From Clostridiales bacterium (GTDB lineage Bacteria > Bacillota > Clostridia > Lachnospirales > Lachnospiraceae), in NCBI GenBank assembly GCA_018372435.1, contig JAHAJA010000003.1:130585-194584 (forward strand): 64,000 bases of DNA, in the 5' to 3' direction. Below the pieces are notes generated by a model that saw only the letters and a list, made by a program, of their open reading frames with translations, was not told the DNA's origin and searched no databases. Shown one piece after another: positions 2,689 to 61,494 of the stretch. Both the position numbers and the translations under genes were made by a program. Numbering within the stretch: the stretch's first letter is position 1; every line of letters starts with the position of its first letter.

Positions 2689-3384
2689 ATGTTAGATATC
2701 TTAAAAGAACTCGACTATAGTCCATTGATAATATCATTAAAAACAGGAATAGCAGCAACGATTGTTTCCTTCTTTGTAGGAATATGGTTAGCTGGTAGAG
2801 TTGTTAGAATGAGTGAACCAAAAAAGGCAGTGGCAGATGGAATTCTTACACTTCCAATGGTATTACCTCCAACAGTAGCAGGATTTTTTCTTCTCTTATT
2901 ATTTAGTAGAAGAAGGACGATAGGTATTTTTCTATTTGATACCTTTGACCTTAAGATTGTTCAAACGTGGCTAGGCTGTGTAATTGCAGCGACCGTAATT
3001 GCGTTGCCACTCATGTATCGGAATGCAAGAGCCGCTTTTGAACAGGTTGATTCCAATCTGATTTTTGCAGCACGGACACTCGGAATATCTGAGAGAAAGA
3101 TATTCTGGAAGGTGATTATTCCTACCGCAGCACCTGGTATAGCATCAGGAACGATTCTTACATTCGCAAGAGCGATTGGAGAATATGGTGCAACATCCAT
3201 GTTGGCTGGTAATATCGCAGGGAAAACAGGAACAATATCACAAAAAATTGCGATGGTTATACAAGATGGTAATTATCAGATAGCAGGAATTTGGGTAGCT
3301 ATTATAATAATAATATCATTTGGGATAGTAGTTTCAATTAACTTGGTTACAGGTAGAAGAATGAAGAATGTGACAAGGTGGTAG
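2689..3384 (+). CDS. modB: Molybdate ABC transporter permease (ModB family)
   Basis: Five to six TM segments and the ABC permease EAA-like loop (AARTLGISERKIFWKVIIPTAAPGIASG). RBS GGGGG lies upstream. Confidence 0.8.
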   Translation: MLDILKELDYSPLIISLKTGIAATIVSFFVGIWLAGRVVRMSEPKKAVADGILTLPMVLPPTVAGFFLLLLFSRRRTIGIFLFDTFDLKIVQTWLGCVIAATVIALPLMYRNARAAFEQVDSNLIFAARTLGISERKIFWKVIIPTAAPGIASGTILTFARAIGEYGATSMLAGNIAGKTGTISQKIAMVIQDGNYQIAGIWVAIIIIISFGIVVSINLVTGRRMKNVTRW

Positions 3385-3388
3385 TCAT

Positions 3389-4444
3389 ATGATGATTCAT
3401 GTTGATATAGAGAAGGACTTTCAAAGTTTCAGATTAATGTCTAAGTTTGTGGGAGACGATGACAGGATAGGAATATTAGGGGCGTCGGGGTGCGGTAAAA
3501 GTATGACGTTAAAGGCGATAGCAGGTATTATCACACCGGATAAGGGAAGGATACTTGTTAATGATCAAGTTTATTTTGATTCCGAGATGAATATTAATAT
3601 TCCTCCACAGAAAAGAAACATAGGATACCTGTTTCAAAATTACGCATTATTTCCTACCATGACAGTGGAGAAGAATATTGCAGCAGGGCTTGGAGGAAGA
3701 AAACAGGAAGAAATCAAAGAACGTGTTGCTATCATGATTAAGAAGTTTGCCTTGAAAGGACTTGAGAAAAGGTATCCCAAAGAATTATCCGGGGGTCAAC
3801 AGCAAAGAGTTGCACTTGCAAGAATCATGGCATATGAACCGGAGGTACTAATGCTTGATGAACCTTTCTCAGCACTAGATAGTTTTCTAAAAGATAATCT
3901 CAAGATGGAGATGAAGCATCTCTTAGATGAATATGAGGGTGGTATGATTATGGTTTCCCATAGTAGAGATGAGATTTATGAGTTTACGAATCAATTACTT
4001 CTTATGGATCAAGGTCATGTGATTGAAACAGGAAAAACTAGAGACTTATTCGCAAAACCATATCGAATGGAGACGGCAAGATTAACTGGTTGTAAGAATT
4101 TATCGCCGATAACGAGACTGGATGAGAACCACGTGTATGCTAAGGAATGGGGGATTACCTTGGAAACAGTAGATAAAGTACATGATAATATAACACATGT
4201 AGGGATTCGTTCTCATCACATTAAACTTTCAGAGAAGGAACAGGTAAATAGTTTTCCATTTGATTTACTAGAACAATCAGAAACACCATTTGAATATAAA
4301 TACATTGTAAAAAAATTAGATAGTAACCATAGTCATATGTGGTGGCAAGTGCCAAAGAACAAAGAGAATATCTTCACTCGTCAGCGAGGAGGTTACCTTC
4401 ATATTCAACCAGAAGATGTGATGTTGCTATCTTCGAAAACTTGA
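3389..4444 (+). CDS. modC: Molybdate ABC transporter ATP-binding protein with C-terminal TOBE-like domain (ModC family)
   Basis: Walker A GASGCGKS, signature LSGGQQQRVALAR, Walker B LMLDEP, plus a ~130-aa C-terminal extension as in ModC. Confidence 0.8.
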   Translation: MMIHVDIEKDFQSFRLMSKFVGDDDRIGILGASGCGKSMTLKAIAGIITPDKGRILVNDQVYFDSEMNINIPPQKRNIGYLFQNYALFPTMTVEKNIAAGLGGRKQEEIKERVAIMIKKFALKGLEKRYPKELSGGQQQRVALARIMAYEPEVLMLDEPFSALDSFLKDNLKMEMKHLLDEYEGGMIMVSHSRDEIYEFTNQLLLMDQGHVIETGKTRDLFAKPYRMETARLTGCKNLSPITRLDENHVYAKEWGITLETVDKVHDNITHVGIRSHHIKLSEKEQVNSFPFDLLEQSETPFEYKYIVKKLDSNHSHMWWQVPKNKENIFTRQRGGYLHIQPEDVMLLSSKT

Positions 4445-4515
4445 TTTTATTCTTGCAAATATGAGAATTAACGTTTATAATGATTTAAGAATATAATATT
4501 TGCGCGTATAAGAAA

Positions 4516-4560
4516 TCAGCGTGAGATCATGTAGTAGATGGTCTCACGCTTTCTTTTTTG
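4516..4560 (+). terminator. Rho-independent terminator after modC
   Basis: GCGTGAGA...TCTCACGC stem followed by TTTCTTTTTTG. Confidence 0.7.
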
Positions 4561-4698
4561 CCCATATTTAAATTAATAATTGGTTAGGGTGTCAAGTAAC
4601 TACATTATGAATAGAGTAGGTAATTGAAATATGATTAATAGAAAGGAAAAGAGTTCTTAAACACCTATATTGTATAAAAGAAAAGAGGATAAAGAGAG

Positions 4699-5181
4699 AT
4701 GGAATTTTACATGAAGTTACCAAGGAACAAGAAAGAATTTATAGTATTTATGGCAGTGATATCAATTATATCGGTTAATATAATTGCACCGTTAATCACG
4801 TGCTTTGAGGTTGGTTTCCATATGAGCGTTTGGGGGGAGGCACTTAAAATTATGCCATTTATATGGATAAGTGTAATAATACTAGTATTGCTTACCTATA
4901 AACCTGCTGAATGGCTAACGTCAAAAATAATTGATAAGGAGGATAGTTTTCGATCTGTTATTGTAATTAATATATTATGTACTGTGTTTTTAATGTCAAT
5001 ATTTTTAACAGTAATTGGTACTTGGATTGGAAGTAGGCAGATAAGTATGGAGCCTATACATGGGTTCTTCTATAGATGGCCAAGAAATTTTACTATATCA
5101 TTTGCAGTTGAATTATTGATTGCACAACCAATCGCAAGATATGTAATGTTAAAAATCCATCTAGTTAAAGAGCAGAATTAG
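4699..5181 (+). CDS. DUF2798-family membrane protein
   Basis: Two repeated 2-TM modules (LPRNKKEFIVFMAVISIISVNII... / ...RWPRNFTISFAVELLIAQPIARYV), the pattern of DUF2798 proteins. Confidence 0.6.
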   Translation: MEFYMKLPRNKKEFIVFMAVISIISVNIIAPLITCFEVGFHMSVWGEALKIMPFIWISVIILVLLTYKPAEWLTSKIIDKEDSFRSVIVINILCTVFLMSIFLTVIGTWIGSRQISMEPIHGFFYRWPRNFTISFAVELLIAQPIARYVMLKIHLVKEQN

Positions 5182-5312
5182 GAAAGTATTTAACAATACA
5201 TTTGAGATATAGGTATGAATGAGATATAATGATTTATATAGTATTAAAAATTCTATATTGAATATACTAGGTTGGCGGGAGCAACAATCTAGAGAAAAAC
5301 AGGAGGCAACAT

Positions 5313-6470
5313 ATGAACAATTTTAAATTTCATGCCCGTACAGATATCCGTTTTGGTAGGGATCAGATTATTAATTTGCCAGGACTATTAACAGCATATG
5401 GTAAGAATGTTTTATTAGTATATGGTGGAGGGAGTATTAAGAAGCTAGGTTTATATGGTCAAATTATAGATTTATTAAAAGGATTTAGTATAGTAGAATT
5501 ACCTGGGGTTGAACCAAATCCGAGAATCACTTCTGTTAGAGAAGGTGTTAGATTATGCAAAGAACATAAGATAGATGTTGTACTAGCAGTGGGTGGAGGA
5601 AGTTGTATTGATGCGGCTAAGGTTATAGCTGGTGGTGCATTCTATGATGGAGATCCTTGGGACTTAGTTGTAGACCCTTCTAAGATCGATGAGGTTTTAC
5701 CAATTGTTACTGTACTTACACTAGCAGCAACAGGTTCTGAGATGAACGGGAATGCAGTAATTAGCAACATGGAAACAAAAGAAAAGTTTGGTACAGGAAG
5801 TCCTAATTTCATACCAATGGCATCTATACTTGACCCTACGTATCTATTTACACTACCTAAGACGCAAACTGCAGCTGGAACAGCAGATATTATGTCGCAT
5901 GTATATGAACAGTATTTTCAAAAAGATGACGAAGCATATCTATCAGATTGTTTATGCGAAAGTATCTTAAAGACTTGTATCAAGTACTGCCCAGTGGCAT
6001 TAGAGAATCCAAAGGATTATGAAGCACGTTCTAATCTTATGTGGGCTTCAACATTAGCCCTTAATGGATTGGTTTGTGCAGGTAAAGGTGGAGCCTGGAC
6101 TTGCCACCCAATTGAGCATGAACTTAGTGCATTCTACGATATTACTCATGGAGTAGGTTTGGCGATTGTTACGCCGAGTTGGATGCGATATATCTTAAGT
6201 GAGAAGACACTTCATAAATTCTGTAACTACGCAAGAAATGTATGGAATTTCGAAGGTGAAGATAGCATGGAATTAGCTACTAAGGGAATTGACGCAACAG
6301 AAAACTTCTTTAAAGAATGTGGTATTCCTATGACGCTTAAGGAAGCTGGAATTGAAGAGAAATCCCTTCATGATATGGCTGTTGCTACGACAAATCACAA
6401 TGATATGGAAAGCTGCTATGTAGGACTTTCTACAGAAGATATTGAAACTATATTAAAGAATTGTTTATAA
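5313..6470 (+). CDS. Iron-containing (group III) alcohol dehydrogenase, butanol dehydrogenase-like
   Basis: Fe-ADH motifs GGGSCIDAAK and ...HPIEHELSAFYDITHGVGLAIV, 385 aa. Confidence 0.85.
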   Translation: MNNFKFHARTDIRFGRDQIINLPGLLTAYGKNVLLVYGGGSIKKLGLYGQIIDLLKGFSIVELPGVEPNPRITSVREGVRLCKEHKIDVVLAVGGGSCIDAAKVIAGGAFYDGDPWDLVVDPSKIDEVLPIVTVLTLAATGSEMNGNAVISNMETKEKFGTGSPNFIPMASILDPTYLFTLPKTQTAAGTADIMSHVYEQYFQKDDEAYLSDCLCESILKTCIKYCPVALENPKDYEARSNLMWASTLALNGLVCAGKGGAWTCHPIEHELSAFYDITHGVGLAIVTPSWMRYILSEKTLHKFCNYARNVWNFEGEDSMELATKGIDATENFFKECGIPMTLKEAGIEEKSLHDMAVATTNHNDMESCYVGLSTEDIETILKNCL

Positions 6471-54295: not shown

Positions 54296-54754
54296 TTGAA
54301 AAAGTTAGGCAAAAAAATCATTTCTCATGCATTCTTGTGTATTGGTGTTCTGTGTTTTTCAATTGTCTCATATAATGCAGCACGTTATTATATAATGCAA
54401 TACAATGCTTTCCCTGTACTATGTGAAATCACGAAGGTAGTGAATGATAAGAAAGTTGATTTAGCGAAAAATCAAGATTCCAATGGTAGAGTCTATAGTT
54501 ATGGTACTTATGTTAATTATGATTTGAAAGGCGAACAGTATAAAAACGTTCGGGTTGCAGAGCAATGTGGGGAAGTAGGTGACACGATAGAATTATATGC
54601 AAACAAATATGAACCAACAAGACTTCTGTATATAAGTAGTACTAAGAGATTGGTTTTTAAACTTCTTATGGTAGAGGGGATTCTATGTATTGTGATTGAA
54701 ATATATATGAATTACAGAAGGAAGAAAAAAGTTAGGAAAGACAATACAGGGTAA
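54296..54754 (+). CDS. DUF3592-like membrane protein
   Basis: N- and C-terminal TM helices flank a ~90-aa beta-rich domain. Confidence 0.4.
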   Translation: MKKLGKKIISHAFLCIGVLCFSIVSYNAARYYIMQYNAFPVLCEITKVVNDKKVDLAKNQDSNGRVYSYGTYVNYDLKGEQYKNVRVAEQCGEVGDTIELYANKYEPTRLLYISSTKRLVFKLLMVEGILCIVIEIYMNYRRKKKVRKDNTG

Positions 54755-55384
54755 GTGAAACGAGAATGTCATATGTATTAAGATACATGTGGTGTGCAAG
54801 GCTTGCCAATAATTTCTGTGAAAATGTATACATTTATTAAATATTAAAGATAAAAGAAATAGTGAAAAATCAGATGAAAAAGACGGTAACAAATCCGAAG
54901 AATCCACTTACAGATAATACACAATCCGAAGTCGTCTGTCCTTTCATTCATTTTTGGTAACATTTCTTAGATTTCAGCTCATAAAGTTCATCATTCTCAT
55001 ATAGTTTATAATCTTTGCAGTACTGTGAACTTGGGATGAGATCGGGTTTTTATAAAAAATAGAAAAATATGGTTGATTAATGTAAAGAAATGTAATAATA
55101 TTTAATAAGAGGCCAACAGGTATATTCGATAAAGATTTTGACCTTTTCTATTTTTACTAATTCTAAAATTCTAGTGAAACATTATCCACACCACTATATG
55201 CAACATCTATTACAAGAGTAGTAATCTCTTCCATAGCGTTTATTTCTCAGGGGGCTTGTTTAAAATAACTGTCACTGTGAGTATAGCTATCATATGCAAT
55301 CAGAAAAACATATCTTTTAAGTGAGCTTTATAGTCAGGTTGGCGATATATCCATGATTTTCTTTCCTAGATTAAAACAATATTT

Positions 55385-55451
55385 TTGACCGGAGATTTGT
55401 TTTACTCGCAAACTCTCCAGACTTATGAAAGGAGTAATTTATTCGAATGTA
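55385..55451 (+). repeat. Degenerate duplicate of the 5'-leader and start codon of the 55730 gene, ending in an ATG-TAG start-stop
   Basis: ~75-80% identical to 55665..55735 (CGGAGATTTG..TACTCGCAAA.TCT.CA.AC...TGAAAGG.GTA.TT.AT...AATG.AG.A.C). The upstream copy reads ATG TAG. Confidence 0.7.
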
Positions 55452-55729
55452 GGAACTTATAAAATAATATTATAGAAACCTTATGATAAAAGGTTGCGGT
55501 TGCCAGAATGACTATAATAGTGACGAATATACAGAATACATATATAGAATAAAATCAAGCTAGGTAATCTTAAGTTTTATAAGCAGTATAGAATTACTAT
55601 AATTTTCATTAGAACGTCAATTGACGTAATTTTAATGATAATAAGGACAGGTTGAAAAATGATATTTTAATCGGAGATTTGTGATACTCGCAAAGTCTTC
55701 AAACATTTGAAAGGGGAGTATTTATAATA

Positions 55730-57064
55730 ATGAAGAATCTTATGAAACGTGTAGTATTATTAATTTTAGTAATGGTATTAGCAATACCATCTAGTACAAT
55801 GATGGCGGTAAAAGCATCATCTAAGAACATTACAATAGGTGAGTATATTGAGTTATTAATGAAAGCAATGAAAGTTACAATTAATGAAACGGAGAATCAA
55901 ACATACATAACAGCAGCAGTTTCAACAGGAGTATTGAAAACAGTTGATGAGTTTAAGGTTGAGGAAGAGATGACCAGAACTGAGTGTGCTGTACTAACTA
56001 ATAGAGCAGATATTTATGTAAATGGAGTAACATCAGATACTAAAATCTTTGATGAAATCAGAGATCATAAGAGAATCTCAGATTTAAGCAAAATAAGTAA
56101 AGAATATAGAGAAGATGTTGTACAAGCGTTCGGAAAAGGAATAATTGTCGGTTATACAAATGGAAAGTATACACAAGATCGAGCTTTTAAAGGAAGCAAT
56201 AAGATTACATATAGTGGTGCAAAAACGGTTATTAAGAAGATAACAAATAAGAAGTTAAGAAGTATTATGTCACCAGATGGTCAATTGACCAGGACTACTA
56301 ATTTACCTTGTAATGCGAAAGAGTATGAATATATATTGGCTAGTTTTCCTAATAAGTTTTATGAAATGAAATTTCAATTTGAACTTGGAAATAGAAATAC
56401 TAAATATATTGAGTTTAATGATTATTGTATACCAGTTAGAATGAAGAAAATGCCTTTTGTAATATCTGGATACGAAGGAACAGCCAAAGAAACGCAAGAA
56501 ATGATTAATAAATATTTAGATGATTGGGTAGAAAAAATTGAGAAGAATCTTTATTATCGCTTTAATGTTAATTATAAAACTATAAATAGTAAATGGATTA
56601 ATAATTTTAGGAATACGTATTGTGTTTACAAGAATGAGGATTTGAATAATGATACAGAGGATGGAATAAAAAAATATGTAAAGGAAATGAAAAAAAATAA
56701 AGTAATTATCAAAACACAAAAAATTAGTGTAGAGCCATCGACACTTTACTACTCACAAGGAAAAACTTATATAAGATGTTATGTTAAATTTTCGGTTACA
56801 TCAGCAAGTAGTCTTGCAGATACATTAGTATATAACAAAATGTACAAAGCAAACTTTATTGGTTTGCAACTTAATAAATGGCATGAAGGTTATTATGATA
56901 TATCAGTAGGTGTAAATAATGGAAGCAGTTTTGGTGATGATTGGGCGGTATTTGGTGAATTTATTAACGATTATTTCACACAAATGAAAGCTAAAGTTAT
57001 GGTACAGAAATTCAATAAAAAGGGTAATTCGTATTTCCCTAATGGATACTATTATTGGAAGTAG
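55730..57064 (+). CDS. Secreted protein, SLH-like N-terminal region plus an unknown domain
   Basis: Signal peptide. Residues ~30-150 contain SLH-like segments (TRTECAVLTNRADIYV; VQAFGKGIIVGYTNGKY). The C-terminal 290 aa match no family I recognise. Confidence 0.5.
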   Translation: MKNLMKRVVLLILVMVLAIPSSTMMAVKASSKNITIGEYIELLMKAMKVTINETENQTYITAAVSTGVLKTVDEFKVEEEMTRTECAVLTNRADIYVNGVTSDTKIFDEIRDHKRISDLSKISKEYREDVVQAFGKGIIVGYTNGKYTQDRAFKGSNKITYSGAKTVIKKITNKKLRSIMSPDGQLTRTTNLPCNAKEYEYILASFPNKFYEMKFQFELGNRNTKYIEFNDYCIPVRMKKMPFVISGYEGTAKETQEMINKYLDDWVEKIEKNLYYRFNVNYKTINSKWINNFRNTYCVYKNEDLNNDTEDGIKKYVKEMKKNKVIIKTQKISVEPSTLYYSQGKTYIRCYVKFSVTSASSLADTLVYNKMYKANFIGLQLNKWHEGYYDISVGVNNGSSFGDDWAVFGEFINDYFTQMKAKVMVQKFNKKGNSYFPNGYYYWK

Positions 57065-57073
57065 GGTGATTAA

Positions 57074-60000
57074 TTGAAAAGAATAAAAGTGGGTACAATA
57101 ATAATTTTAATTATTATAAATATATTCTCAATAATAGATAATAATAGAAGAGTAAAAGCTGAAGAAAATCCCTATTCAGTTAAAGGTGTAATTTATTATG
57201 AAACAACAGATAAAGCTGCTTGCACTGATACTACATGGAGATTGGTTGGGTTTATAATTCGACTAGATAAGTGTAACTACAATTCTCTTAGAGGTGGTTC
57301 TGAAAAATATGTAAAGGTATTGTTTGATAATAAAAATGTTACACAAGATATAATATCACTAGGAAATGGTTATAATTTTACTAAATATACTATATCAGAG
57401 AGATATTTTCTTGAATTAGTCGAAAATAATACAGTATTACACCAGCAATTTATGAAATCAATGAATTGGGATAAGAATAAAGACGGTACTTTTGAAGGAG
57501 GGACAATTTACATAAATGGTATATTTCAGGTGTATTATAACGGAGTACCTAAAAAGGGACCTTATTACACTCTATCAGATATTAGGAGAGCAGAGGGTTG
57601 GGGAGCAGAAACAATGAATGATTTTGCCAAATATTTTGATCAGCCAGTAAATTATTCTCCGACTGATTTATGGCAGCCAGAAGTCCCAGTAACAGTAGAA
57701 TATCATACCAGTGATCATGAACTGATGTATACTGATAATTTAGGTAAAGTAGAATTAGATAAATCCGCATCCTATACATTCCCCGAAGAATACAAATTTA
57801 AGGGCAAAAATTACAAATTGTACAGAAGCTACTATATCAACATGTCTAAGCCAACTAAGATGTTAGGCAAGTTAAAAGTTAATGTAGATGGGGCAACATT
57901 ATCCTCCGTTAAGAAAAGAAAAGAGATCGCCGCGGATCTCAAAGGGTTAAAATTCATAGCCATGTACAAAGAAGATGATCCAATGCCATCAGGCGAAGAA
58001 ATAGAACCAGATGCTATGTATTCACCACTTGAAGAACCCAACCCAGAAGCAGTTATTAAGGCGGATCAAAGAGGAAATGAACAATTTGATGTAGAATTAG
58101 GAATACCGACTACGGAGAATGTGTACACCAATGTGGTTTCGGAGAACTATTTGTTTTCTTATCAGTTTACAAAAGAAGTAATGAAAGTCCCGTATAGTGT
58201 GTCTGCAAGTAAAACTTATAATTTATCTTGGACAAGTTATGAAAAAGTGGGAACAAATAAGGAAACGAAAGAAGATATCTATGATGATGTAGAGAAAACG
58301 GAAGAGTATGTTGTGCAGGCAGAAATAGTTGTAGAAAGAGTAGTCGCCTATTGGCGTATCAATCAATTAAATGTTTATGTACTAGATAACGCAGTAATTG
58401 GTAATGGTGCATTACCAAATCAATTAGTTAATTTGACTGCTAATAATACCAAAATACCAGTGATAGAATGTAATAGAAGTGTAGACATTAAGGAACATGT
58501 GTTAGACCCAGAAGGATACGAAGAAACTATGAGTTTCCCAGCGGAAAATATAGTGGGAGGTTTTATAAAACCAACAGTATCGAGTACCGATTTGGAAGAA
58601 TGTGTAGAAGAAAAAATCGGTATACCGAAAGTGAAGAATGATAAACTCATATTTGATAACGTAATTGTTATGAATGATACTGAAACACTAAAAGAAGGAC
58701 CTAGGCCTAAGGAGCTCAAAGAATCAGCAATATGTGATAATAATGTACTATACAAATCGAATATAGAGATTCCAAGAGAGAGAGCTAATAAAGAATATGA
58801 TTCTACAGGGGTAGTGATATATAAACAAATCTATCCTGAAAGGAATGGATCTTCTGGCGATGGGTTAGGGAATGTAGGAATAATAGGTTCAGGAAAGATC
58901 ACATTTGAAATACCAGAGGTTAACTCCATTGTAGTACATACACCTACAGTATGTAATGCAAAGATAACCGATTTAAAAGCTTATAATCAGATGGTAACAC
59001 CAGCTGTGAATCGTGCATCACTTATTTTAGACAAATCTTTTACCGTCAGTTTACCTACAACAGGTGAGCATAATGAATATCCCGGATATGGATACAGAGA
59101 TTATGCAAAGTATATAGCAACGAGACAAGTTATGTTTCCGTTTGATGTATACCGAGGGACAAATTATATAAGAGCAGGAACTTGGACTGATATGGTAAAT
59201 GAGGAGGAGACCTTTTACTTACCAACATGGGTAACAGAAGGTAATTACGAAGTAGAATGTAAGACTACGGCCATTAACTGTGCTGCAAACAATGGTGATG
59301 ACTTAAATGAGTACGTAGCAAATTTTAATATTGATAATTATTCAGCAATTGATAGTATCTTTGTCCAAGTCACAGGACGTCTCTACAATCTTCAAATCTA
59401 TGATATAACTGATTACCCTCTCTGGGAATCAGTATTCCGAAAAGAAAATTCATTAGCATTAACAGGAACAAATTACACCGTGGGTATTGCTAATCAAAAT
59501 GGTATCCTTACTGGTAGATTAGCCAAGTATACATTTCCGTTGGTGTATGGAAGCCACCCAAATAAAGAAAAGGAAGGGGCGATGAAACTAGGTTACAGTA
59601 CTAGATTTAAACTGACTACTATAGGAGATATGTTTGAAACGAAAGACTATATTAAGATAATTCCAAGATTCTATTATGTAGACTATCACGGAAATAATAG
59701 AAAAGAGGTGGATTTATATTATACGGAGACATTTAACAGTAAGAAAAATTATTTAGTTAAAGTCGGTGGTGATAAGGATAAGACGAATAAGAAATCCTTT
59801 GTTCTCGGGAATGTTTATTGGCAAGTTCCAGAGAAGGAAATAAAAGCAACAGGATTTATAGATGATATAACAGACAATCTAATTCGTTCTAGAAAGAATG
59901 AGATATTTTCCTTTAATGATATACAACTAAGTACAACATTTCGGACTTATGTAGGAGATAGTAGTTATATTCCGTCTGGAACTATACCGAGCTCAGTTGG

Positions 60001-60394
60001 TGCCAAGAAAGTCATGCGCTCTGTACAGACTTGGTATGGAGAATACTATCTACCAAGTGATGTACATGTAGTAGTAAAAGATTTTGACCTTAAGAAGTAT
60101 GCGAAAGAACGAGGATATATTGATTTTACAGAAGATATCTGGCTTGATAAAGGATATATCATAGTAAATTATGATATTGTTACGTATCAGACGGGGAAAG
60201 CGCAAGCAAATCTAAGCTATATTAATAAAGAGAATGCGTTGCAAGGATATTGCAATATGTGGAAGCTAGAAGGTTCACAGTTAGCAAAGACAGATACCTA
60301 TGGAAATACATTCGAATTCAAATATGGTGATTATGTTATGTATGATACAGAAAAATCAGCAGCAAAGGATTATAAATCTGGTGGGACCCATTAA
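57074..60394 (+). CDS. Large secreted protein of unknown function (1106 aa)
   Basis: Signal peptide (IIILIIINIFSII). Beta-rich, with no repeats or catalytic motifs I recognise. It starts 9 nt after the upstream gene, so they probably form an operon. Confidence 0.5.
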   Translation: MKRIKVGTIIILIIINIFSIIDNNRRVKAEENPYSVKGVIYYETTDKAACTDTTWRLVGFIIRLDKCNYNSLRGGSEKYVKVLFDNKNVTQDIISLGNGYNFTKYTISERYFLELVENNTVLHQQFMKSMNWDKNKDGTFEGGTIYINGIFQVYYNGVPKKGPYYTLSDIRRAEGWGAETMNDFAKYFDQPVNYSPTDLWQPEVPVTVEYHTSDHELMYTDNLGKVELDKSASYTFPEEYKFKGKNYKLYRSYYINMSKPTKMLGKLKVNVDGATLSSVKKRKEIAADLKGLKFIAMYKEDDPMPSGEEIEPDAMYSPLEEPNPEAVIKADQRGNEQFDVELGIPTTENVYTNVVSENYLFSYQFTKEVMKVPYSVSASKTYNLSWTSYEKVGTNKETKEDIYDDVEKTEEYVVQAEIVVERVVAYWRINQLNVYVLDNAVIGNGALPNQLVNLTANNTKIPVIECNRSVDIKEHVLDPEGYEETMSFPAENIVGGFIKPTVSSTDLEECVEEKIGIPKVKNDKLIFDNVIVMNDTETLKEGPRPKELKESAICDNNVLYKSNIEIPRERANKEYDSTGVVIYKQIYPERNGSSGDGLGNVGIIGSGKITFEIPEVNSIVVHTPTVCNAKITDLKAYNQMVTPAVNRASLILDKSFTVSLPTTGEHNEYPGYGYRDYAKYIATRQVMFPFDVYRGTNYIRAGTWTDMVNEEETFYLPTWVTEGNYEVECKTTAINCAANNGDDLNEYVANFNIDNYSAIDSIFVQVTGRLYNLQIYDITDYPLWESVFRKENSLALTGTNYTVGIANQNGILTGRLAKYTFPLVYGSHPNKEKEGAMKLGYSTRFKLTTIGDMFETKDYIKIIPRFYYVDYHGNNRKEVDLYYTETFNSKKNYLVKVGGDKDKTNKKSFVLGNVYWQVPEKEIKATGFIDDITDNLIRSRKNEIFSFNDIQLSTTFRTYVGDSSYIPSGTIPSSVGAKKVMRSVQTWYGEYYLPSDVHVVVKDFDLKKYAKERGYIDFTEDIWLDKGYIIVNYDIVTYQTGKAQANLSYINKENALQGYCNMWKLEGSQLAKTDTYGNTFEFKYGDYVMYDTEKSAAKDYKSGGTH

Positions 60395-60402
60395 GGGCCC
60401 AC

Positions 60403-61413
60403 CTATTCTTTTCTATGTCTATATTCAAGAGGTGAGCATTGATATGTCTTGCGGAACATCTTGATAAAATTGCTGGTGTAAGGATACCCAACCTTCTCAG
60501 CAATTTCTCCTATACTTAAATCCGTGGTACTTAATAGATTTACAGCCATAGACATACGAAGGGAAGTGATATACTTTCCGATTGGCATGTGATAGTAATA
60601 AGAAAATCCTGCTTTTAGTTTCTGTGGGTTTAGTAATACTTGCTCGCTTAGGGAGTCGATCGTTGGTGGGGACTGAAGATTATTAGTCAAGATCTCATGA
60701 GCTTTTTGAATGGAACGAATATCGCTGGCGCTTAGGTGAAGGTATTTGTTTGTACCGATTTTGACTTTGCCATAGTGGAGCTGTCTAGTGAATGTATTAT
60801 CGGGGGAAGTCTCAACAGTTTGGATAATAATTGCGAAACATTCTAAGATGCAACTTTCCAGATAGAGAGGAGTTAATGCATCCTGATTGGAAAGAACTTG
60901 CATCTTTTCAATTATTGTATTGATTCCTAATGGAAGGTAGGGATATGTTACATTCTCGTTGAATTTATTAAAATCAAAGTTGAGATTGAAGTTATCTCTT
61001 AGATATCTAGTTACATAAGATTCCTGTATTGTTATTTCAGCACCGTGATAATGTTCGCCTCTTATCCAAGCCTGTTGACCTTTAATACCTCTCTCAATTA
61101 CAAAGAAAGAGGAAGGTTTGAAGGAGGATACCGGTTGATTCTCCAATTTAAAATTGGTGGAACCTTTATAGACAGTACCAAATCGTATCAGTCGTTCAGG
61201 GTTGTCGAATGCAAGTTTGAACGGATGTGGAATAGTAAAGTCAGCAATTCCAAAACTGTAGTAATTAGGACGTTCATAAGATAATAGATGCCCATGTTCA
61301 GGTCTAGCGGGATTTTGATATAAGGTATAGTTCTTTTGCTTAATAGGAACAAATTGTAGTTCAGCAAATACAGCTTCTCTGAATTCTTTAGATGACGTAA
61401 CGATTGTTTGCAT
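60403..61413 (-). CDS. AraC-family transcriptional regulator with N-terminal ligand-binding domain
   Basis: C-terminal AraC HTH (IGEIAEKVGYPYTSNFIKMFRKTYQCSPLEYRHRK). It is divergent from an iron-siderophore ABC operon. Confidence 0.8.
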   Translation of the reverse strand: MQTIVTSSKEFREAVFAELQFVPIKQKNYTLYQNPARPEHGHLLSYERPNYYSFGIADFTIPHPFKLAFDNPERLIRFGTVYKGSTNFKLENQPVSSFKPSSFFVIERGIKGQQAWIRGEHYHGAEITIQESYVTRYLRDNFNLNFDFNKFNENVTYPYLPLGINTIIEKMQVLSNQDALTPLYLESCILECFAIIIQTVETSPDNTFTRQLHYGKVKIGTNKYLHLSASDIRSIQKAHEILTNNLQSPPTIDSLSEQVLLNPQKLKAGFSYYYHMPIGKYITSLRMSMAVNLLSTTDLSIGEIAEKVGYPYTSNFIKMFRKTYQCSPLEYRHRKE

Positions 61414-61494
61414 AAATATATATTCTCCGTTTAAAATAGTATATAGAAAGTTGCTCTTGAGTAGAATCAAGTTCAAGAAGTAGTACTGATAATA

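Follow-up and report, generated by a model that had tools for sequence, protein, structure and literature searches.

A decayed tandem paralog in the probable control region of a variable surface-protein operon in Lachnospiraceae

The window analysed here (64,000 nt of Clostridiales bacterium assembly GCA_018372435.1, contig JAHAJA010000003.1, positions 130,585–194,584, forward strand) includes a stretch free of credible open reading frames (ORFs), at 54755-55729, immediately upstream of a gene encoding a secreted 444-aa SLH-like protein (55730..57064, plus strand). Two copies of a module spanning a 5′ untranslated region (UTR), ribosome-binding site (RBS) and start codon lie at its downstream end. 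The second copy opens the 444-aa gene, and the first is what is left of the front of a dead tandem paralog of that gene, referred to here as psi: its 5′ UTR, its RBS and its six opening codons. A previous interpretation made from the letters of the window alone (the sequence-only reading) had described both copies and missed this cause of the duplication, the decay of a tandem paralog down to its 5′ end. As a whole, the ORF-free stretch quite probably serves a variable cell-surface-protein operon (SLH-like, DUF5704 and convergent AraC genes) as upstream control and leader region, and it holds the wreck of a second tandem SLH-like gene.

The two module copies were found where first described, apart from a shift of a few bases. 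A repeat search paired 55383-55432 with 55665-55714 (82% identity over 50 nt) and blastn extended the match to 55373-55464 and 55656-55747 (76.6% over 94 columns, E = 3.5e-11). The 64-kb window contains the module core CGGAGATTTGNNNTACTCGCAAA exactly two times where 0.01 occurrences would be expected, and none of 100 shuffles contained two; the duplication is far beyond chance. The psi module (55383..55464, plus strand), collinear with the single gene start of the related locus L005, comprises a hairpin (55391-55399/55409-55418), a Shine-Dalgarno (SD) sequence GAAAGGAG (55427-55434), an ATG (55447-55449), a TAG (55450-55452) and degenerate codons 3-6, so that its codons read ATG TAG GAA CTT ATA AAA against ATG AAG AAT CTT ATG AAA in the functional gene. 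The functional proximal region and 5′ UTR (55653..55729, plus strand) has a conserved box GTTGAAAAATGATATTTTAA that includes an extended −10-like TGnTATTTT at 55660-55668, hairpin arms at 55673-55681/55691-55700 and the SD sequence GAAAGGGGAG at 55709-55718. This region is 85-95% identical between diverged groups of loci, and 90.7% identical to that of A. mobilis although the proteins are only 63% identical.

The gene family was located to Lachnospiraceae near Anaerosporobacter, and orthologous loci were taken at graded distance, including more distant genera. Protein identity to the window is 99% for L002 and L003, 88% for L004, 76% for L005, 74% for L087 and L088, 73% for L094, 71% for L006, 70% for L089 and L092, 69% for L095, 66% for L090 and L091, 64% for L093, 63% for L007 (A. 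mobilis), 58% for L096 and 56% for L008 (A. faecicola). Window sequence from 54985 to 55464 is collinear, at 86-88% identity, with L005 and L007 sequence ending at their single gene start, and the upstream copy thus occupies the position of a gene start. When fragments lying between the two copies in relatives were matched against the window's own protein, different lineages proved to keep different collinear pieces: residues 1-15 (E = 3.8e-4; IKHLKKRIVLSILVID, followed by a stop, versus MKNLMKRVVLLILVM) and 54-77 (E = 1.6e-6) in L006, residues 35-51 in L095 (E = 2.7e-5), 54-80 in L090 (3764-3844; 70% identity, E = 5.6e-10), 59-80 in L089 (E = 2.9e-6) and 395-414 in L004 (E = 3e-6). Such a pattern is characteristic of an originally full-length gene that has shrunk through deletions occurring independently. 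The psi frame is disrupted, in the window by a stop as its second codon and in relatives by stops, frameshifts or lost starts. The outgroup L008 has two intact tandem paralogs (3381-4697 and 4862-6145), each preceded by TTACATGGAGGAATT, and two family genes are also adjacent in L035 (L. phytofermentans).

An ancestor would thus have carried two tandem paralogs, as A. faecicola still does, the first of which would have decayed through successive deletions, with the retained fragments differing by lineage. The window keeps only the psi 5′ UTR, SD, start and about six codons (55383-55464), plus ~150 nt of unrecognisable remains. These remains, the decayed psi body (55465..55613, plus strand), correspond to the interval that keeps coding fragments in relatives. 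Some points weigh against this history. No significant coding relic beyond the first six psi codons was found in the window (best E = 0.6), and the paralog origin of 55465-55613 is deduced from the relatives. The two A. faecicola paralogs differ little in their identity to the window protein (54-56%), and the A. faecicola duplication and the one that gave rise to psi may be separate events. The decayed body also contains a direct repeat (AGAATGACTATAAT, 55505-55518, and AGAATTACTATAAT, 55590-55603, 85 bp apart). Elsewhere in the family, at 4.33-4.37 Mb of the Anaeromicropila herbilytica chromosome (L009-L011, L013 and L017), at least five family-gene copies are found ~7.2 kb apart, with one gap of ~15 kb, a spacing that suggests tandem arrays of the whole operon and repeated duplication as a habit of the family.

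The two-copy layout is present in the window, L002, L003, L086, L093, L004, L006, L089, L090, L091, L092 and L095, and the single-copy layout in L005, L007, L087, L088 and L094. Single-copy alleles correspond to the upstream copy of the window in their left flank and to the downstream copy in their body (79.8% versus 90.7% identity), a chimeric structure expected from unequal recombination between two direct repeats. The two ~80-nt module copies act as such repeats, recombination between them having yielded the single-copy alleles. Sister alleles belong to the same species complex and have flanks of 94-95% identity, yet ~280 bp between the copies has been lost from them, and with it one module copy and a palindrome discussed below. 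The single-copy state appears to be derived, because all more diverged lineages have two copies and the outgroup has two intact genes. The sequence-only reading had made its regulatory interpretation depend on the upstream module being present at orthologous loci, which holds for the two-copy alleles and fails in L005, L007, L087, L088 and L094. A recent duplication in the window lineage, in which a foreign allele with its own upstream region was inserted after the resident start by homology-facilitated illegitimate recombination, would match the L005-type flank of the upstream copy and the L006/L004-type flank of the downstream copy. However, the two-copy layout and collinear coding relics are found in all diverged lineages examined (L004, L006, L089, L090, L092, L093 and L095), and single-copy alleles have precisely the chimeric structure that deletion between repeats predicts; the distribution of two-copy loci across lineages refutes a recent insertion in the window lineage, which is left with next to no credence.

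The most eye-catching feature of the upstream copy, an ATG followed immediately by TAG, is present as described (with the ATG at 55447 rather than 55446), GAAAGGAG being followed after 12 nt by ATG TAG (55427-55452). It had been read as a regulatory start-stop upstream ORF (uORF). In its fullest form this reading gives the upstream module a dedicated regulatory role, in which a start-stop mini-uORF, equipped with an RBS of its own and a conserved hairpin, would tune downstream translation or stability, and both the strong SD ahead of the ATG-TAG and the functional start-stops documented in E. coli (bioRxiv 10.1101/520783) speak for it. However, ATG-TAG is found only in the window and in L086, where the psi-start context is identical. 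Both L002 and L093 read ATG AAG, opening a 19-codon ORF (MKELMIQYYTILYDKRLPE, followed by a stop), although in L093 the spacer upstream (54755-55060) is 99.3% identical to that of the window. L090 has an ORF of 8 codons and L004 a shifted ORF of 5 codons at this position, and the psi ATG is replaced by ATA in L006, AAA in L092 and AAG in L089, leaving no start codon. This comparison identifies the ATG-TAG as a very recent nonsense mutation in a pseudogene, AAG having become TAG at codon 2. It is incidental and no conserved regulatory element. The hairpin fares no better: GGAGATTTG (55391-55399) pairs with CAAACTCTCC (55409-55418) with one bulge and a centroid energy of −9.5 kcal/mol, its z-score against shuffles (−0.51) indicates that the fold is not exceptional, and the minimum-free-energy fold of the functional copy in the window lacks the module hairpin. 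With no compensatory changes and an unremarkable folding energy, the ‘conserved UTR hairpin’ of the sequence-only reading is not upheld, and since the entire unit is also deleted in sister alleles, a dedicated mini-uORF is very improbable.

Conservation around the dead paralog was profiled as identity between two groups (window and L002 versus L004, L006, L089, L090 and L092) in 15-column windows. Islands are located at 55061-55120 (87-99%), 55160-55175 (85%), the psi SD box (55430-55444; 83%), the palindrome (55609-55623; 72%, a value lowered by a deletion in L004), 55666-55680 (85%) and the functional RBS and start (55711-55745; 92-95%), with 0-50% identity between them. The leftmost island corresponds to a promoter-like block, P1 (55056..55106, plus strand), with an A-rich tract, a −35 element TTGATT (55073-55078), a 17-nt spacer and a −10 element TAATAT (55096-55101). 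P1 is the best-conserved non-coding block of the whole region, found in 20 of 20 alignable related loci (orthologues with at least 63% protein identity) whatever the upstream gene. Conservation starts abruptly at its left edge, with 87-99% identity between the two groups in P1 versus 8-51% in the two 15-column windows directly upstream, where different loci carry YibE/F plus a 119-aa ORF, a xanthine/uracil permease, a GH2 enzyme or an ABC pair. A metagenome scan with the P1 block pattern returned one locus, the window-like L086, and no added diversity. The P1 spacer is filled by a direct repeat of AATGTAA (55079-55085 and 55089-55095, 10 bp apart), nearly invariant except that the first copy is ATTGTAA in the diverged group (L004, L006, L089, L090 and L092). 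These repeats could be a regulator site, e.g. for the adjacent AraC-family protein.

P1 lies ~340 nt upstream of the psi start and would be the promoter that originally served the first paralog. The sole plus-strand promoter-like site of the outgroup L008 (10/12, extended −10) is found 330-360 nt upstream of its first paralog, after a strong terminator, and the match in distance supports this assignment. P1 is followed by a conserved non-coding block, blk1 (55107..55330, plus strand), which nhmmer matched in every orthologous locus (E 1e-52 to 1e-87). It may represent the long 5′ leader that the once-first paralog had ancestrally. No conserved ORF was found in blk1; an apparently semi-conserved minus-strand peptide (MEEITTLVIDVAYSGVDNVSLEF, followed by a stop) was rejected as coding, having no conserved start, conservation at DNA level only in the sequence upstream of it and, in a hand count of aligned codons, only 2 of ~20 nucleotide changes synonymous. 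No strong terminator is present between P1 and the gene, where the palindrome forms a weak hairpin only. Transcription from P1 would start at ~55108 and continue through the remnant into the gene, giving a leader of ~620 nt, and whether the operon is in fact driven from P1 with the remnant carried in such a leader appears an evenly balanced question. The long regulated leader originally proposed is therefore plausible, from the conservation of P1 and the lack of a strong terminator, at ~620 nt and not at the 975 nt suggested.

The argument for P1 and a long leader is one of conservation and consensus, and there are counts against it. P1 matches the promoter consensus at 8 of 12 positions in the window (9 of 12 at the homologous site in L006), promoter-like sites in this AT-rich region are at shuffle expectation and not enriched, and the proximal −10-like box TGnTATTTT (55660-55668) could be the real promoter, in which case the remnant would be untranscribed. 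A 10/12 promoter-like site at 55576-55603, with its TATAAT taken from the repeat AGAATTACTATAAT, was rejected, as it is not conserved even in L002. If the proximal box is the promoter, transcription would start near 55673-55676, with a leader of ~55 nt opening with the hairpin, psi would be neutral pseudogene junk, and the palindrome would lie upstream of the promoter or be a relic. The −10-like TATTTT, preceded by TG in most lineages, indeed stands 5-6 nt before the 5′ arm of the hairpin in nearly all of them, and in Firmicutes a 5′-terminal hairpin classically stabilises the transcript. The parts of the remnant deleted differ among lineages, and single-copy alleles manage without it. However, the proximal box has no −35 element, the psi SD (83%) and palindrome (72%) stand out as islands within sequence of 0-50% identity, and it is hard to explain in this way why P1, 620 nt upstream, should be the non-coding element with the strongest conservation and mark the left edge of the conserved region. 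A junk remnant behind a proximal promoter is thus possible, though doubtful.

A structured cis-regulatory RNA (riboswitch, T-box, or ligand or protein sensor) with the duplicated module in its expression platform would also suit a long, partly conserved upstream region, in which a UCUCC 3′ arm could be contested between a GGAGA 5′ arm and the SD, as seen in the sequence. Rfam scans covered the whole window at gathering thresholds and 54600-55900 at E up to 10, and the latter gave no match except a chance Dictyostelium RNA (18 bits). RNAalifold indicated no conserved structure for blk1 on either strand (−4 to −6 kcal/mol) and no supported structure for blk1, the module and the palindrome (consensus −2 to −6 kcal/mol, 0-4 compensatory pairs). 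A riboswitch-like element is unlikely, and a structured sensor built around the duplicated module is scarcely credible. The sole Rfam family match in the window is a TwoAYGGAY RNA (RF01731; 23008-23174, minus strand), which is full-length and scores 94.6 bits (gathering threshold 43).

Within the remnant, the psi SD has been kept where the start codon has not. All ten two-copy loci that were tabulated retain GAAAGGAG, L002 and L089 each with a single purine substitution, and the box is 83% conserved between groups, while the psi start codon is variable: an ATG follows in the window, L002, L090 and L004, and no start codon in L006, L092 and L089. Assuming a standard anti-SD at the 3′ end of 16S rRNA, the psi SD may still bind 30S subunits and act as a 5′ stabiliser of the STAB-SD kind (see below), a role suggested very tentatively.

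The palindrome, ACGTCAATTGACGT (55614-55627, three bases to the right of the position first reported), is perfect over 14 bp and is either a candidate operator or a residual inter-paralog hairpin. In a single sequence it would be unremarkable, and its significance comes from conservation in related loci only: the window contains 16 perfect 14-bp palindromes (first-order Markov simulations gave 6.3 ± 2.4), and at least one turns up in 15% of simulated 975-bp regions. Another one, AAATGTATACATTT, is located at 54822 inside the ORF-free region. ACGTCAATTGACGT is unchanged in L002, L003 and L086 and takes a 15-nt form, ACGTCAATTTGACGT, in L006, L090, L091 and L092 (consensus across loci ACGTCAA(T)TTGACGT); it is invariant in 8 loci, with one mismatch each in L089 and L093. 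The distance to the functional module is also conserved (42-44 nt; 45 nt upstream in the window). Invariance of both arms amid unalignable flanks, at a conserved distance, favours sequence-specific recognition, i.e. an operator, and the palindrome may be a binding site for a dimeric regulator, a reading rated somewhat short of probable. The candidate operator of the sequence-only reading therefore stands in so far as an invariant island fits a protein-binding site. Counting against a control function, the palindrome is deleted in L004, in L095 and in all single-copy alleles, and both it and the psi SD are dispensable in natural single-copy alleles. The further copies that had been envisaged were not found in a scan of the 64-kb window only, at up to 3 mismatches.

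The palindrome could instead be a leftover intercistronic hairpin or weak terminator from behind the first paralog, now perhaps a partial attenuator. It is the sole terminator-like site in the region, passing a lenient terminator scan in the window and L006 (flagged weak; 5-6 pairs, 3 of them G-C, with an interrupted T-run), the extended stem in the window reaches −10.7 kcal/mol (z = −4.6), and A. faecicola has a hairpin just past the stop of its first paralog (−12.2 kcal/mol, z = −2.0). In the diverged group, however, the hairpin is weak (−6 to −7 kcal/mol, z = −0.7 to −0.9), the U-tract is interrupted, and invariant arms without compensatory changes between unalignable flanks fit sequence-specific recognition better. 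A leftover hairpin is accordingly judged unlikely. A second perfect 14-bp palindrome, TGGTCAATTGACCA (56278-56291), lies inside the SLH-like gene and encodes an invariant D-G-Q-L-T motif. The 10-bp core of the leader palindrome, GTCAATTGAC, is identical to 56280-56289, the codons of the invariant G-Q-L-T motif of the family, and the four differences between the leader and in-gene palindromes are symmetric, thus preserving a perfect 14-bp palindrome. Codon choice at the DGQLT motif varies freely in the family, indicating no nucleotide-level selection in the coding sequence (CDS). The leader palindrome might be a relic of the DGQLT-coding segment, with which it shares the identical core, though the similarity of the flanks is not significant (p = 0.08 to 1.0).

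Taken to its furthest, the dead-paralog reading would have pieces of psi recruited into control of the surviving gene: its RBS as a start-codon-independent docking site for 30S subunits (STAB-SD or ribosome standby site) protecting the ~620-nt leader, the palindrome as an operator, possibly coding-derived, and recombination between modules yielding alleles with or without this layer of control. As a whole this proposal is speculative and quite improbable.

As to the locus itself, the ORF-free stretch is preceded directly by a hypothetical membrane-protein gene (152 aa). The SLH-like gene, assigned by Pfam matches (the SLH match of the 444-aa protein being weak, 22.5 bits), a signal-peptide N-terminus and conserved synteny, has a DUF5704 gene (57074-60394) downstream of it and then, in convergent orientation, a gene for an AraC-family regulator (60403-61476, minus strand). 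The lack of a credible ORF in 54755-55729, as originally noted, was borne out; the only ORFs are short and all clip its left edge (74 aa, 54683-54907, minus; 39 aa, 54844-54963, minus; 32 aa, 54862-54960, plus). Across the family the median ORF-free distance upstream of the first family gene is ~520 bp. Between the membrane-protein gene and the conserved operon unit lies a lineage-variable spacer (54755..55050), alignable with close relatives only and including a 175-bp indel (54810-54984) relative to L005-type alleles. Spacer cargo upstream of the conserved block includes an ABC-transporter ATPase and ABC-2 membrane pair in L004 (1755-3148), with the membrane component also matched just upstream in L006 (2503-2619), and a minus-strand DUF3784 gene in L095 (2584-2898). 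No DUF3784 or ABC-transporter relics were found in window positions 54755-55050, and tblastn of all ORFs of at least 50 or at least 80 aa from the fetched loci against 54755-55735 gave trivial self-type matches and the N-terminal codons only.

Flanks of the locus are 93-99% identical to the window in L093, L007 and L005, yet the SLH-like and DUF5704 alleles are very different. No alignment of L093 or L007 with the window is possible between roughly 56440 and 58916 (starting at about 56620 in L093), and their proteins are 63-64% identical to that of the window. Near-identical flanks around strongly different alleles identify the locus as a polymorphic surface-protein cassette, and its left boundary is marked by the conserved 5′ module and leader.

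The sequence-only reading was therefore wrong on its most conspicuous points, the start-stop uORF and the conserved hairpin, whereas its long leader and candidate binding site are partly borne out as plausible. A module that looks regulatory, with a duplicated RBS, a start-stop and a hairpin, can be gene wreckage, and a handful of related loci suffices to tell. For annotation, the 5′ boundary of the operon control region moves to ~55056, with the promoter-like block and palindrome flagged. In evolutionary terms, a tandem paralog is seen at several stages of deletional decay across lineages, with a final clean-up through recombination between duplicated 5′ ends, at a surface-protein locus with strongly differing alleles. 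If the psi SD box is indeed functional, it would represent exaptation of the RBS of a dead gene.

Some features of the region have counterparts in known systems. The retention of the psi SD where the start codon is lost underlies a resemblance to the STAB-SD of Bacillus thuringiensis cry3A, for which PMC4113751, summarising Agaisse & Lereclus 1996, gives a promoter at −558 and a stable 5′ end at −129. The two systems share an SD-like sequence in a long 5′ UTR (here GAAAGGAG at about −300 in a putative one, with no conserved start codon) and a distal promoter several hundred nt upstream (putative here); unlike in cry3A, the SD of the window derives from the RBS of a dead gene and natural alleles without it exist. 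The E. coli start-stop sites in yecJ and hslR are intragenic, and ribosome binding to them was demonstrated (Meydan et al., bioRxiv 10.1101/520783), whereas the ATG-TAG here is a nonsense mutation in a pseudogene, absent from relatives with a 99% identical adjacent spacer (54755-55060). As in palindromic operators of dimeric helix-turn-helix regulators, the palindrome is a perfect 14-15 bp inverted repeat, invariant amid unalignable flanks and at a conserved distance from the functional module; unlike them, it is lost in several alleles, and the neighbouring regulator is of the AraC type, which more often uses direct repeats. Long leaders and variable cassettes are generally known from S-layer and cell-wall-protein loci, which the present locus resembles in its secreted SLH-like surface protein, long ORF-free upstream region and divergent alleles between near-identical flanks. 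The closest likeness is to remnants of tandem-paralog pseudogenes, in the similarity to the neighbouring gene (5′ UTR, SD, start and N-terminal codons), the broken frame, the differing collinear CDS fragments kept by relatives and the outgroups with intact tandem paralogs. Unlike such remnants, psi has kept its SD box in every two-copy lineage examined while its start and coding body decayed, and it lies between a conserved distal promoter-like block and the surviving gene, so that it may be transcribed in the leader. A decayed tandem paralog within a control region is nevertheless a known kind of element, of which this locus is another example.

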